A stretch of 64,000 nucleotides of DNA from Clostridia bacterium (lineage in GTDB: Bacteria; Bacillota; Clostridia; Christensenellales; CAG-138): assembly GCA_017448545.1 (NCBI GenBank), contig JAFSLH010000007.1:27460-91459 (forward strand), given 5' to 3'. Below, one piece after another: positions 33,218 to 48,268 of this stretch (positions are counted from its first letter, which is position 1; the number at the start of each line of letters is the position of its first letter). A program made the translations under genes and the position numbers. The notes beneath the pieces were generated by a model. It was not told the DNA's origin. It saw only the letters and a program-made list of their open reading frames with translations, and ran no database searches.

Positions 33218-34714
33218 ATGGAAGAAACCGTCAAACGATTCAAAGCGCAGCTCGAAAAGATGCGCGTTTACGAGCACGCCATGGGCGTCCTGTATTACGA
33301 TATGGAGACCGTCATGCCGAAGAAGGCCGCTCCGCTCGTCGGGGAAACGCTCGGCGCGCTGTCCGGGGTCGAATACCGGCTGAAGACGGACGAAACGTTC
33401 CTCGCGGACATGCAGGCAATCCTTGCGCATCCGGACGCGGTCGACGCGATCACGCTTGCCGAAGCGAAACAGATGTACGAGGATTACGAACGCACCGCCT
33501 GCATCCCGGTCGACGAATACGTTGCGTTTCAGGTCGCGCTGACGGCTTCCTCCGCCGCGTGGCACGAAGCGAAGGTGACGAACGACTTTGCAAAATTCCT
33601 GCCGCACCTCGAAACGGTCTATGACTATACGCGCCGGTTCGCCCGCTATTATCGGCCCGACGCGCCGGTCTACGATACGCTTCTGGATTCCTACGAAAAG
33701 GGGCTGACGACCGAAACGCTCGACGCGTTTTTCGCTAAGGTGCGCGCCGCGCTCGTTCCGGTCATCGACGCGATCCGCAAAAAGGGCTATCAGCCGGACG
33801 TTTCGTTCCTCGAGCAGCCGTACCCGATCGAACAGCAGAAGGAATGGACGAAGTACCTGATGCAGGTGCTGCGCATGGATCCCGACCGCACGGTCTGCGG
33901 CGAAGTCGAGCATCCGTTTACGACCAGCTTTACGAAGGACGACGTCCGCATCACGACGCACTACCACGAGGACGCGGTGCAGAGCTCGATGTACAGCGTG
34001 ATCCACGAAGGCGGCCACGCGATCTACGAACTGAACGTCGGCGACGACATCAAGCTAAGCCCGCTCAGCAACCTGACCAGCATGAGCGTGCATGAAAGCC
34101 AGTCCCGCTTCTTTGAAAACATCATCGGCCGCAGCGAGCCGTTCATCGAATACGTGTTCCCGAAGCTCGTCGAGCTGTTCCCGACGCAGCTTGCCGGCGT
34201 GACAGCGCATCAGTTCTATCTTGCCGTGAACAAGGCCGAACCGTCGCTGATCCGCACCGAAGCGGACGAGCTGACCTATCCGCTGCACATCATGATCCGC
34301 TATGAGATCGAAAAGAAGCTGATCGACGGGACGCTGGCCGCTGCGGACGCGCCCGCCGCCTGGAACGCGCTCTACCGCGAATACCTCGGCGTCGACGTGC
34401 CGGACGACAAACAGGGCGTTCTGCAGGATTCGCACTGGTCGAGCGGCCTGATCGGCTACTTCCCGTCCTATGCGCTCGGCAGCGCGTACGGCGCGCAGCT
34501 CCTCGACTGGATGCAGCGCGATCTGGACGTGTGGGGACTCGTGCGCGAAGGCAGCCTGCAGCCGATCATCGACTGGCTGACCGAGCGCATCTACCGCCAC
34601 GGCATGCGCTTCACGCCGAAAGCGCTGATGGAGCAGGCGATGGAAGCGCCGTTCGATCCGAACTACTATACGGATTACCTGACCGAAAAGTTCACGAAGC
34701 TGTATAACCTGTAA
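33218..34714 (+). CDS. Carboxypeptidase, peptidase family M32 (Taq-like)
   Basis: 498 aa. HEGGHAIYE zinc motif, plus HESQSR and GYFPSY blocks typical of M32. Confidence 0.88.
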   Translation: MEETVKRFKAQLEKMRVYEHAMGVLYYDMETVMPKKAAPLVGETLGALSGVEYRLKTDETFLADMQAILAHPDAVDAITLAEAKQMYEDYERTACIPVDEYVAFQVALTASSAAWHEAKVTNDFAKFLPHLETVYDYTRRFARYYRPDAPVYDTLLDSYEKGLTTETLDAFFAKVRAALVPVIDAIRKKGYQPDVSFLEQPYPIEQQKEWTKYLMQVLRMDPDRTVCGEVEHPFTTSFTKDDVRITTHYHEDAVQSSMYSVIHEGGHAIYELNVGDDIKLSPLSNLTSMSVHESQSRFFENIIGRSEPFIEYVFPKLVELFPTQLAGVTAHQFYLAVNKAEPSLIRTEADELTYPLHIMIRYEIEKKLIDGTLAAADAPAAWNALYREYLGVDVPDDKQGVLQDSHWSSGLIGYFPSYALGSAYGAQLLDWMQRDLDVWGLVREGSLQPIIDWLTERIYRHGMRFTPKALMEQAMEAPFDPNYYTDYLTEKFTKLYNL

Positions 34715-34721
34715 CGCCATG

Positions 34722-34992
34722 GGGCTGTTCAAAGCGCTTTGAACAGTCCCTTGTGAATTCTCGCTTTGCGGCGTTGAAAGAAGCCCGATGGGAGGATTGT
34801 AGGGTGGCCTCCCCTGTGTAAGGGGACAAGGATTCTGCGCTCGCAGTGCGAGATGAAGCAGAATCCTTGATGACCACTGTTTGCCGATAGGCTGACGGTA
34901 GGGTTGTAAAGCTCCTTTTTCCCGCATCTCCAACCCTACAACCCCACCCGGTGACTGCGTCACCGACCTCCCCTTACACAGGGGAGGCAAAT
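34722..34992. repeat. Intergenic mosaic repeat cluster R5 (modules A, B partial, E x3, D x2, F, I)
   Basis: CTGTTCAAAGCGCTTTGAACAG at 34725-34746. TCCCTTGTGAATTCTCGC. GGATTGTAGGGTGG. CCTCCCCTGTGTAAGGGGA. AAGGATTCTGC..GCAGAATCCTT at 34828-34868. TGACCACTGTTTGCCG. CAACCCTACAACCCCACCC. CCTCCCCTTACACAGGGGAGG at 34967-34987. Confidence 0.9.
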
Positions 34993-35079
34993 AACATGAA
35001 GCAAATCAATCGCGAAAAACTGCATACCCTTTGGACGCTGTTCCTCACTTCGATGCGGATCAGTGCGTTTACGTTCGGC
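34993..35079 (+). repeat. Direct repeat copy 1 (87 bp) of the chromate-transporter gene start
   Basis: AACATGAAGCAAATCAATCGCGAAAAACTGCATACCCTTTGGACGCTGTTCCTCACTTCGATGCGGATCAGTGCGTTTACGTTCGGC is identical to 35191-35277. Confidence 0.95.
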
Positions 35080-35133
35080 CGGGATAAAACGCGGCGCGCT
35101 TCCTGCGGAAGATGCAGCGACGCGTTTTATTGA
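34996..35133 (+). pseudogene. Truncated duplicate of the chromate-transporter gene 5' end (decoy start; 28 codons identical to the intact gene, then unrelated sequence and a stop)
   Basis: 34993..35079 is identical to 35191..35277. The reading frame MKQINREKLHTLWTLFLTSMRISAFTFG then diverges (RDKTRRASCGRCSDAFY*). Confidence 0.6.
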
Positions 35134-35160
35134 CCGCTGTTTGCCCGCCGCAGGCGAGTG
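35084..35160. repeat. Repeat modules between the two 87-bp copies (hairpin ATAAAACGCG..CGCGTTTTAT, module I, H-like CGCCGCAGGCGA)
   Basis: 10-bp inverted arms at 35084-35093 and 35121-35130. TGACCGCTGTTTGCC at 35131-35145. Confidence 0.8.
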
Positions 35161-35190
35161 CCGCCGCCGAGAACTCCGAGAGAACGAACT

Positions 35191-35277
35191 AACATGAAGC
35201 AAATCAATCGCGAAAAACTGCATACCCTTTGGACGCTGTTCCTCACTTCGATGCGGATCAGTGCGTTTACGTTCGGC
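35191..35277 (+). repeat. Direct repeat copy 2 (87 bp), the functional 5' end of the chromate-transporter gene
   Basis: Identical to 34993-35079. Confidence 0.95.
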
Positions 35278-35772
35278 GGCGGCTTCGTGATCGTGACGTT
35301 TATGAAGCGGCACTTTGTCGACCGGCTGCACTGGCTGAGCGAGGAGGAGATGCTGGACTATACCGCGCTCGCGCAGACCGCGCCGGGGCCGATCGCCGTG
35401 AACGCCGCGGTGCTGGTCGGGCGGCACGTTGCGGGGACCGCGGGCATGGCCGCCGCCGTGCTCGGCACGGTGATCCCGCCGATCGTGCTGCTTTCGGTGC
35501 TTTCGCTGTTTTACGCCGCGTTCGCGTCGAACCGGTACGTCGCGCTGTTTCTGAAGGGCATGCAGGCGGGCGTTGCGGCCGTGATCCTCGACGTCGTCTG
35601 CTCGCTCGGACAAAAGGTGCTGAAGGAGCGGTCGTGGGTTTCGATCGTCCTGATGGCGGCGGCCTTTGTCGCGTCGCTGGTGTTCCGCGTGAATGCCGTC
35701 TGGATCCTGCTCGGCGCGCTTGCGGTCGGCGTTGTGCTCGCCCTGCTGGAGCGAAAGGGGGCGAAGGCATGA
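35194..35772 (+). CDS. Chromate transporter (CHR) family protein, half-size subunit 1
   Basis: ORF 35158..35772 with ATG at 35194. SAFTFGGGFVIV and AQTAPGPIAVNAA motifs of ChrA-type proteins. Confidence 0.85.
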   Translation: MKQINREKLHTLWTLFLTSMRISAFTFGGGFVIVTFMKRHFVDRLHWLSEEEMLDYTALAQTAPGPIAVNAAVLVGRHVAGTAGMAAAVLGTVIPPIVLLSVLSLFYAAFASNRYVALFLKGMQAGVAAVILDVVCSLGQKVLKERSWVSIVLMAAAFVASLVFRVNAVWILLGALAVGVVLALLERKGAKA

Positions 35773-36326
35773 CGCTTTGGGAACTGTTCTTTGCCTTTTT
35801 GCAGGTCGGCCTGTTTTCGGTCGGCGGCGGCTATGCGGCGATCCCGCTGCTCGAAAGCACGGTCGTCCGCAGCCACGCGTGGCTGACGCTGTCGGAGTTT
35901 TCCGATCTCGTGACGATTGCGGAGATGACGCCCGGCCCGATCGGGATCAACGCCGCCACGTTCGTCGGAATGCGGATCGCGGGGCTGCCCGGCGCGCTGA
36001 TCGCTTCGCTCGGGTTCGTGCTGCCGTCGCTGATCCTCGTTTCCCTGCTCTTTTGGCTCTACCGCAAATACCGCACGCTGCCGCTTTTGCAGCGGCTGAT
36101 GAAAACGCTGCGCCCGGTCGTCGTCGCGCTGATCGCTTCGGCCGGCGTGACGCTGCTGCGCACCGCGGTCTTCGGCGACGCGGCGCTGTCGCTTTCGGCC
36201 GTGAGCTGGCTTGCCGTCGTACTGTTTACGGGCGCGTTCGCCGCCATCCGGTTCGGCAAATGGAACCCGATCCTTGTGATGGCGCTGTGCGGCGGCCTGT
36301 ATCTCGGCGTTTCGCTGTTCCTTTAA
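35769..36326 (+). CDS. Chromate transporter (CHR) family protein, half-size subunit 2
   Basis: ATG 35769 overlaps the upstream stop (ATGA). LFSVGGGYAAIPLL and EMTPGPIGINAA motifs. Typical paired short-CHR arrangement. Confidence 0.85.
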   Translation: MTLWELFFAFLQVGLFSVGGGYAAIPLLESTVVRSHAWLTLSEFSDLVTIAEMTPGPIGINAATFVGMRIAGLPGALIASLGFVLPSLILVSLLFWLYRKYRTLPLLQRLMKTLRPVVVALIASAGVTLLRTAVFGDAALSLSAVSWLAVVLFTGAFAAIRFGKWNPILVMALCGGLYLGVSLFL

Positions 36327-36384
36327 CCTGTCATTTTACCGAAAAAGCATTGCAACCGCCCGCCGGACGGAGTACAATGGCGGT

Positions 36385-37590
36385 ATGAGTCGATTTACGC
36401 GCCGCTTTGCGGTTTTACAGGGATTCTATTGGGTTTCCGCCTGCTTTGTGTATTCGTTTGCCGAACGGTATCTGACTGCGCACGGGTTTACCGTGCCGCA
36501 GGTCGGGCTGGTTCTGGCAAGCGCGAATGCGGCTGCGCTGTTGCTGCAGCCGCTGCTTGCCGCCCTCGCCGACCGGCCGAACGGGCTTTCGCTGAAGGCC
36601 GAACTGTGCGGCGGCGCCGCGCTCGCGATCGTGCTTGCGCTGCTGCTCTGCTTCCCGACGAACGTGCCCGTGCTCGTCGCCGTGCTGTTCTGCACGCTTT
36701 CGGCGGTGACGCTGGCGATCCAGCCGCTTTGCAACGCGGTCGGGATGGCGTATGTGGATCGGGGCGAACGGATCGATTACGCGCTCGGGCGCGGGATCGC
36801 GTCCGCAATTTTCGCCGTGTTCTGCTACGGGATGGGCTTCCTCGCGGAATGGAAAACGGACGCGCTGCTCTGGGTCTACGCGGCGGCGAACGTCGGTCTT
36901 GCCGTGACCGCGATCGTCTTTGCGCCAAAGAAGCGGGCCGACGTGAAGCCCGCCGACGTTTCGAGCGCGTCGGCGCTTTTGAAAAAGCACCCGTATCTTC
37001 GTCTGCTGCTGCCCGGCACCGTTCTGATCTTTGCGGTGCACAATTTCATCAACGCGTACATGCTGAGCATCGTTTCCGAGATCGGCTGCGGCACGCATGA
37101 AATGAGCGTCGGCATTGCGCTCGCCGCGCTCGTCGAGATCCCGACGATGGCCGGGTTCTCGCTTTTGCAAAAGCGGTTCCGGCTGAGTGGGCTCCTCATC
37201 GTTTCGTCGCTGGCCTTCCTCGTCAAAGTCCTCGTTCTGCTGCTGCCGATGTACCTGCATGCGGGGGTCTGGTCGGTCTACCTTTCGCAGGGCGTGCAGC
37301 TCATGGGCTACGCGATCTTCATTCCGGCCGTGTCGTTCTTTTTGAACGGGCGCATGGACGCGGGCGACAAGGTCAAGGGGCAGATGCTCGTCACCGAATC
37401 GCAGACGCTCGGCTGCATCCTCGGCCAGCTTGTCGGCGGGTTTGCGATCGCGTCGCTCGGGCTTCCGGCCACGACGCTGATCGGATGCGTTCTGACCGCC
37501 GCCGGCGCGGGACTGGTCGCGTTGGCGGTGCATCATCCCGGCCCGGACTTGCCCGCCGGTTGCGAAACAACCGAAAAAAACAACGGATAG
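36385..37590 (+). CDS. MFS transporter
   Basis: 401 aa with about 12 hydrophobic helices and MFS-like loop patterns. Preceded by a TTGCAA-17-TACAAT promoter-like sequence. Confidence 0.8.
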   Translation: MSRFTRRFAVLQGFYWVSACFVYSFAERYLTAHGFTVPQVGLVLASANAAALLLQPLLAALADRPNGLSLKAELCGGAALAIVLALLLCFPTNVPVLVAVLFCTLSAVTLAIQPLCNAVGMAYVDRGERIDYALGRGIASAIFAVFCYGMGFLAEWKTDALLWVYAAANVGLAVTAIVFAPKKRADVKPADVSSASALLKKHPYLRLLLPGTVLIFAVHNFINAYMLSIVSEIGCGTHEMSVGIALAALVEIPTMAGFSLLQKRFRLSGLLIVSSLAFLVKVLVLLLPMYLHAGVWSVYLSQGVQLMGYAIFIPAVSFFLNGRMDAGDKVKGQMLVTESQTLGCILGQLVGGFAIASLGLPATTLIGCVLTAAGAGLVALAVHHPGPDLPAGCETTEKNNG

Positions 37591-48099: not shown

Positions 48100-48268
48100 G
48101 CTCAAAATGCTTTGAACAGTCCCTTGTGAATTCTCGCTTCGCTCCGTGAATTGTCCTAAGGAAGCCTTTCCGGACGGAACACATTTATCACGACAACGCA
48201 GTTGTCAATTCACGCGTTTACGCAATTCACGGCGCAGCCAATTCACGCGGCAACGCCGCAATTCACCG
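48100..48268. repeat. Intergenic mosaic repeat cluster R7 (degenerate A, B, C x4)
   Basis: GCTCAAAATGCTTTGAACAG. TCCCTTGTGAATTCTCGCTTCGCTCCGTGAATT. CAATTCACG at 48206, 48223 and 48239. CAATTCACC at 48259. Confidence 0.9.

Follow-up and report, generated by a model that had tools for sequence, protein, structure and literature searches.

The locus considered here is the 480-nt intergenic region in front of chrA, in a window of 64,000 nucleotides, by which we mean the whole stretch of Clostridia DNA that was analysed. Upstream lies the gene of an M32 carboxypeptidase, and downstream are two adjacent genes of ~190 aa, each with PF02417, i.e. a short-chain CHR (chromate ion transporter) pair. We take this pair to match the ywrA/ywrB type of Bacillus subtilis; like that type, it consists of two adjacent overlapping ~190-aa PF02417 genes, there is no relevant difference, and the ChrA transporter itself looks ordinary. 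The intergenic region holds a mosaic cluster of hairpin repeats (R5), a truncated copy of the start of chrA (copy 1) and a spacer, after which the intact gene begins (copy 2). The features are collected in Table 1.

Table 1. Features of the chrA locus, in window positions.
Feature	Position	Strand	Basis
Gene of a 498-aa M32 carboxypeptidase, ancestral neighbour of chrA on its upstream side	33218..34714	+	ORF, PF02074
Mosaic hairpin-repeat cluster (R5), modules found genome-wide	34716..34991	.	BLAST against the genome: dozens of partial copies
182-nt MITE-like unit, perfect 20-bp terminal inverted repeats GCCTCCCCTGTGTAAGGGGA / TCCCCTTACACAGGGGAGGC	34807..34988	.	Inverted-repeat search; arms pair in the fold
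Copy 1, truncated chrA gene-start fragment (TAAC + codons 1-28)	34992..35079	+	Repeat comparison; begins exactly at the end of the terminal repeat module
Decoy ORF, 45 codons: ChrA residues 1-28 + RDKTRRASCGRCSDAFY	34996..35133	+	ORF list; own script
Spacer, 5' part: hairpin with A-tract and U-tract (35084-35130), then TGACCGCTGTTTGCC (35131-35145)	35080..35156	+	Common to L016/L017
Spacer, 3' part, unique sequence	35157..35189	+	A ~140-nt repeat cluster instead in L016/L017
Copy 2, start of the intact chrA gene	35190..35277	+	Repeat comparison
chrA, first short-chain CHR gene, 192 aa	35194..35772	+	PF02417; homologues found
Second short-chain CHR gene, 185 aa, 4-nt overlap with the first	35769..36326	+	PF02417

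An earlier note on this DNA had reported identical stretches at 34993-35079 and 35191-35277, each made up of a 3-bp leader and 28 codons of chrA. Comparison with our own script bears out the identity and extends the exact run by one base, to 88 instead of 87 bp. The 28 codons, which start with ATG, are confirmed as well, but the leader is TAAC and not AAC. A separate repeat search aligned 34989-35079 with 35187-35277, a run of 91 nt whose sole mismatch is at 34991. The gap between the two copies is 110 bases and the duplicated unit measures ~198 bp. Since the repeat is exact over 88 bp, a chance origin is impossible.

The host genome is a MAG of 38 contigs, only 60% complete, and several contigs and scaffolds are interrupted inside copy 1. 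It could therefore be suspected that the repeat is an artefact of assembly, resulting from collapsed strain variants or from a graph loop that was wrongly traversed. Twelve contigs of other assemblies code for an identical ChrA; four of them, from four other samples, were retrieved and compared (L011, a 114-kb scaffold, and L012, L013 and L014). In all four the structure is that of the window base for base. The interruptions comprise an N gap in scaffold L012 and the starts of L013, L014 and L026; copy 1 supplies exactly the first 55 nt of L013, and the gap in L012 falls at the same point, which is what a true 88-bp repeat is expected to give in a k=55 graph. L014, on the other hand, is a MEGAHIT k=141 contig that takes in 80 nt of copy 1, crosses the spacer and copy 2 and continues into the gene, and its path is unambiguous because k=141 exceeds the length of the repeat. 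The junction of copy 1 with the spacer must also exist in the reads, being present in five assemblies of the window strain and, in diverged form, in L016/L017. An artefact is thus unlikely, to the point of being scarcely credible, and the same goes for the assembly error that had been named as a refutation of the duplication. The duplication of the chrA start is genuine, comprises at least two units, and is fixed in the population.

Two sister lineages show what the region looks like without these additions. In L030 (78% aa) the order is M32, an 80-nt unique spacer, chrA and chrA, and in L028 (82% aa) it is M32, a 213-nt unique spacer, chrA, chrA and an MFS gene; both have a single start and no repeats. 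The adjacency of M32 and chrA is ancestral, since both lineages keep it, and the intergenic region of the window species is therefore an expansion that consists of the repeat cluster and copy 1, with or without the spacer. An alignment of relatives, which had been proposed as a way to the unduplicated state, thus yields single starts in the sister lineages, but these come without the cluster or spacer-like sequence, and an empty site in the same species did not emerge. Three GTDB congeners have a single-copy chrA elsewhere in the genome, and synteny downstream of M32 is not conserved in the GTDB congeners.

We now turn to the repeat cluster. R5 is multi-copy, palindromic, intergenic and mosaic, and is in these respects REP/BIME-like or MITE-like; its RNA fold is predicted at -142 kcal/mol (z = -8.6). 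The arms of the 182-nt unit inside it are at 34807-34826 and 34969-34988, and its flanks show no sign of a target-site duplication. In the 60%-complete genome, 18 exact copies of the terminal module TCCCCTTACACAGGGGAGGC were counted. Four of the 18 extend as ...GGCAAA and diverge thereafter, which puts the end of the terminal module, ...TCCCCTTACACAGGGGAGGCAAA, at 34991, directly before the first base of the duplication; the earlier statement that the cluster abuts the upstream copy is therefore correct. A 25-mer of this module is 100% conserved in many congeneric genomes. The cluster as such is absent from the homologous M32-chrA intergenic region of L030 and L028, and its type varies between strains. 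It is plausible that the repeats are recombinogenic at the chrA locus. Conserved across the genus and variable among strains, the repeat family is probably a more interesting object than the duplication.

A number of further observations on the repeats can be recorded here. The hairpin module TGCGCTCGCAGTGCGAGATGAAGCA (window 34836-34860) is found at the ends of contigs C2, C13, C16, C19, C22, C30 and C32, and the repeat family is a main cause of assembly breaks in the MAG. The sole Y1 transposase gene in the 60%-complete genome (C23:12309-13106, minus strand, PF01797, RAYT-like, ~250 aa) is flanked by its own hairpins, AACACAGAAGAACCGTCCCCTTGTGTT, which are unlike the modules of the chrA locus, and its region is lower in GC. 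Another multi-copy module has four CAATTCAC motifs ~20 nt apart (L015:620-800), with copies at C16:75643-75725 (window ~48184-48266), C32:24352-24476, C4:28682-28828 and elsewhere; in L015/L018 this module ends 7 nt before the chrA ATG. An Rfam scan of 34000-36500 gave nothing relevant.

The DNA between the two copies had been described as 111 bp of mosaic modules. This holds for a hairpin and a 15-nt motif, but the spacer as a whole is single-copy and not a repeat element. The hairpin has 14-nt arms with one mismatch (35084-35097 / 35117-35130) and a predicted energy of -25.6 kcal/mol. The motif TGACCGCTGTTTGCC occurs in four copies in the genome; the 15-nt TGACCRCTGTTTGCC is the sole part of the spacer that is common to the repeat family, and a hairpin precedes each of its four copies. 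The complete spacer was found once in the genome and in none of 27 other species of the genus, it lacks terminal inverted repeats, and it has no recognisable similarity to the intergenic regions of the sister lineages when aligned to them. A 20-mer of the spacer hairpin had no match in the JGI metagenomes and three chance matches in the genome collection, all in Acidobacteriota MAGs and none extending beyond the pattern. The lowest-energy fold of the spacer sets a long-range pairing against the hairpin, and L016 does not conserve this pairing. A terminator/antiterminator switch based on this fold was considered and rejected, the alternative pairing being downstream of the U-tract and, as stated, not conserved.

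Information about the age of the structure comes from L016/L017, the ChrA of which belongs to the same 90% cluster, with gene DNA 95.7% identical to that of the window. Both contigs start inside the upstream chrA fragment. They share with the window the breakpoint TT(C/T)GGC joined to CGGGATAAAACG (TTTGGC in L016/L017), followed by the first 77 nt of the spacer, and fragment and spacer stretch together are 96.6% identical over 148 nt. The 5 differences from the window in copy 1 and spacer are all at third codon positions and synonymous in the frame of the decoy ORF; four lie in the chrA-derived part and one, TGC>TGT, in the tail that does not derive from chrA. Downstream of the 77 nt the structures part, L016/L017 having a different repeat cluster of ~140 nt that ends ...GGGGAGGCAAA followed by TAACATG, so that the inter-copy segment of L016 is ~220 nt long and unlike that of the window in content. 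The junction of the repeat end GGCAAA with TAACATG is thus found before copy 1 in the window and before the functional copy in L016. The functional start of L016/L017 differs from its own fragment at 14 of 71 comparable positions, including a dense patch that we call type B. Codon 11 is ACG in the L016 fragment and in the outgroups L030 and G024, and ACC in all functional alleles and in copy 1 of the window. The join of copy 1 to the spacer is old, since it is common to strains ~4% apart, and the event cannot be called recent.

These data bear on two explanations that invoke an insertion. The first, put forward in the earlier note, is a target-site duplication of unusual length, in which the spacer would be a mobile module inserted after codon 28 with cuts staggered by 88 bp. 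The hairpin and TGACCRCTGTTTGCC, shared with three other module copies, and the variation of repeat clusters among strains agree with this, but the genome has the spacer unit as such only once, the 27 other species of the genus lack it, it has no inverted termini, and L016 has an inter-copy segment of other length and content. Furthermore, a genome-wide scan for short-range direct repeats revealed no other module with a long flanking duplication, and we know of no bacterial transposition mechanism that makes an 88-bp duplication. The idea is largely refuted, and we regard it as very improbable.

The second is the scar of a site-specific integration. Here, an element targeting the 5' end of chrA would have brought its own gene start, the two starts would represent attL and attR, with the spacer as the remnant left by a deletion. 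Direct repeats of a gene end around an insert are the classic signature of an integrase, and a difference between the copies, as seen in L016, is expected if one is element-derived and the other chromosomal. In addition, contig C30 has a 98-bp duplication (98% identical) of a gene 3' end at 167-264 and 1797-1894, flanking a whole gene, a 406-aa ORF that presumably encodes an AAA-ATPase/DUF4143-type protein; this layout resembles the insertion of a selfish gene that restores the end of its target gene. At the chrA locus, however, no strain has a gene for an integrase or recombinase amid or close to the copies (ORFs of the window, L011, L016 and L015), the inter-copy DNA amounts to merely 110-220 nt, and part of the spacer belongs to the repeat vocabulary of the genome itself. 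An integration scar is accordingly improbable. Elsewhere in the genome, a 111-nt tandem duplication in perfect register lies in an AT-rich intergenic region (C25:103320-103540), and a 412-nt near-tandem repeat (98.5%) lies inside a very long ORF (C1:4224-5079).

Two further assemblies, L015 and L018, have different alleles, with chrA 98.5% and 97.5% identical to the window. In these, chrA adjoins another gene, behind other repeat modules and without an upstream fragment, and homology to the window stops within about a base of the ATG; in the alternative upstream architectures of the locus, the breakpoints sit at the gene start. The flanking gene corresponds to a gene on contig C32 of the window genome (95.4% identity), and the matching C32 site has neither chrA nor repeats. 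Comparison of L015:1-807 with C32:12776-13300 (L027) places the chrA pair at a second locus in another lineage, and the higher identity of chrA (98.5%) relative to the flanking gene (95.4%) suggests that the pair may have been transferred between lineages.

The type B patch is found at L016:345-372 and L018:858-885 (equivalent to window 35244-35271) and comprises 11 substitutions in 28 nt, changing LTSMRISAF to LRSMLISAS. It creates a perfect palindrome of 8-9 bp, GGTCGATGC...GCATCGACC, with a predicted -17.9 kcal/mol (z = -3); type A, which is the cross-species consensus, gives no fold. Whether an allele has the patch does not depend on its upstream context, and a short conversion tract or a templated mutation is a possible origin. 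Judged from the alleles compared, recombination is rife at the chrA locus and the alleles are mosaic.

The reading that we prefer, and hold to be reasonably probable, is that the partial duplication is the old scar of an illegitimate join beside the repeat cluster, the copies of which have been homogenised by gene conversion. A single join would have connected codon 28 of chrA to the 5' end of the spacer and left the truncated start fragment, in an intergenic region that in the window species is filled with hairpin-rich REP/MITE-like modules. The route that we favour is a one-sided 'displacement'. Incoming DNA of the order spacer, chrA start, chrA would recombine homologously within or downstream of chrA, and its other end would be joined illegitimately to a resident allele whose chrA start directly followed the repeat cluster, whereby the resident start fragment would be pushed upstream. 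A template switch, driven by microhomology or by a hairpin, that duplicates the spacer together with the start would be nearly as likely a route. In either case the event would precede the split of the strains ~4% diverged, and conversion of the fragment by the functional start would give the 88/88 identity in the window strain.

Several features are in line with an illegitimate join of this kind. The novel join is 4 nt from a strong hairpin. The occurrence of GGCAAA followed by TAACATG before copy 1 in the window and before the functional copy in L016 is expected of a resident allele in which the start follows the repeat, and L016 has the appearance of a locus in which the DNA before the functional start was replaced once more. 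The ACG/ACC pattern at codon 11 and the five synonymous changes fit a conversion of copy 1 by copy 2. A functional start that changes only synonymously and repeatedly overwrites the fragment would explain both the identity in the window and the synonymous-only divergence between strains, and concerted evolution of the fragment would thus be the simplest account. Of the earlier suggestion that the modules are mobile or recombinogenic, recombination beside a strain-variable cluster fits these results; the recent insertion of a module that duplicated so long a target does not.

Against a mere scar, it can be argued that direct repeats of 88 bp would be expected to be lost by RecA-mediated recombination, yet these persist across strains; persistence would fit if the spacer were needed or its deletion harmful. 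Furthermore, a pre-event strain, with either R5, start and gene but no spacer, or M32, spacer, start and gene but no copy 1, was not found among the compared strains. Parental or donor sequences were likewise not found through variants of the neighbouring genes (there is a single member in the M32 cluster, and variants of MFS and chrA2 stop short of the region), through partial M32 genes of other strains (a search with the C-terminal 150 aa gave 75% identity at best and no hit from the window species), or through collection scans (a gene-start 38-mer had 0 matches in the JGI metagenome and GTDB genome collections).

It is also necessary to consider the 45-codon ORF opened by the upstream copy, which was noted before and is confirmed (ATG at 34996, TGA at 35131-35133). 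In one possible scenario this decoy is functional, as a small membrane or leader peptide; translation through the hairpin would set read-through into chrA, and selection would have retained the duplication. A GGAGG stands 8 nt before the ATG of the ORF, where the functional chrA start has only a weak and distant GAGAG, and the TGA of the ORF is directly 3' of the spacer hairpin with its U-tract. All five inter-strain substitutions are synonymous, including the one in the tail, for which three neutral models give P = 0.0003-0.001, and the persistence of the duplication despite the risk of pop-out points in the same direction.

However, the GGAGG is predicted to be buried, both in a local hairpin (-15.3 kcal/mol) and in the stem of the 20-bp terminal inverted repeats, and efficient translation of an upstream ORF is doubtful for this reason; the proposal that the decoy affects expression of chrA is weakened accordingly on the basis of these folds. 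Gene conversion accounts for the four changes in the chrA-derived part, which leaves a single event to test the tail, and the hairpin has a competitor in the long-range pairing, which is not retained in L016. The scan of 34600-35194 called no sigma-70-type promoter and no classical terminator, and exact look-ups of the 45-aa decoy and of a 60-aa GTG version in other assemblies returned the window's own record only, with no homologous small ORF on record. The sole promoter-like call in 34600-36450 is a good sigma-70-type TTGCAA-17-TACAAT at window 36350-36378, just upstream of the MFS gene.

The synonymous-only pattern would fit conversion, a functional small ORF being less likely, and the evidence for a selected peptide appears weak, with one substitution testing the tail. 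Of the features of a leader peptide or attenuator, the ORF, the GGAGG and the hairpin at the stop are present, with the GGAGG sequestered, no terminator called and five substitutions in all. Given the stop codon right after the predicted hairpin, a leader-peptide role is conceivable, at a slender probability. Equally slender are the prospects of the specific version in which the decoy is a conserved 45-aa ORF (the first ChrA transmembrane segment with a basic CxxC tail), a MITE-like repeat donates the ribosome-binding site, and translation through the spacer hairpin tunes chrA. For a functional decoy or retention by selection in general, we see a small but real chance; most likely, the ORF is a by-product of the event.

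If the decoy were to act in this way, recombination between the 88-bp copies could place chrA now behind a weak and now behind a strong ribosome-binding site. Annotators should note that, of the two ATGs, the one that comes first and has the better Shine-Dalgarno sequence is not the true start of chrA. Taken alone, the duplication is a small structural scar that adds one more case to a class of events already known. The value of the case is that of a dated natural example, from an uncultured rumen-type Clostridia lineage, in which hairpin-rich intergenic repeats co-occur with illegitimate joins, with the move of a gene pair to another locus and with an 88-bp repeat that evolves in concert.

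Finally, the locus can be compared with known systems. Correia elements in Neisseria are MITEs that supply expression signals. The 182-nt unit of the window, with its terminal inverted repeats, likewise puts GGAGG 8 nt before an ATG, but the ATG that is served belongs to the truncated copy, the motif lies in a hairpin, and there is neither a target-site duplication nor a linked transposase. Gene-end duplications of the attL/attR type share with the window the direct repeats of a gene terminus that flank inserted DNA and leave the gene intact; they differ in that no recombinase is present at the window and the insert has only 110 nt.

Another parallel is offered by arrays in which homology-facilitated illegitimate recombination leaves gene fragments as orphans, and by the sequential displacement proposed for the T6SS effector-immunity arrays of V. 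cholerae and for Rhs orphan arrays (PMC5361080). As there, a new gene end with its own flank is found while the old end is kept as an adjacent truncated fragment, the alleles are mosaic, and the second strain, L016, looks like a second round of displacement. In those systems, however, it is toxin genes that have their 3' ends displaced, and they are under strong diversifying selection, whereas the window concerns the 5' end of a housekeeping-type transporter, with no evident selective rationale and by a mechanism that we infer.

A further parallel is with E. coli and Salmonella, in which duplication or amplification junctions form at REP/BIME clusters by template switching at secondary structures, such clusters being hotspots for these junctions (PMC3161906). 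The window differs from them in that its unit is tiny (~198 bp), includes a gene start and is fixed in a natural population, in that the join falls outside any recognisable copy of the repeat, and in that the family is unrelated in sequence to enterobacterial REP. What the two have in common is the setting, the join of the window being likewise 4 nt from a strong hairpin and adjoining intergenic palindromic repeats that are multi-copy and variable among strains.
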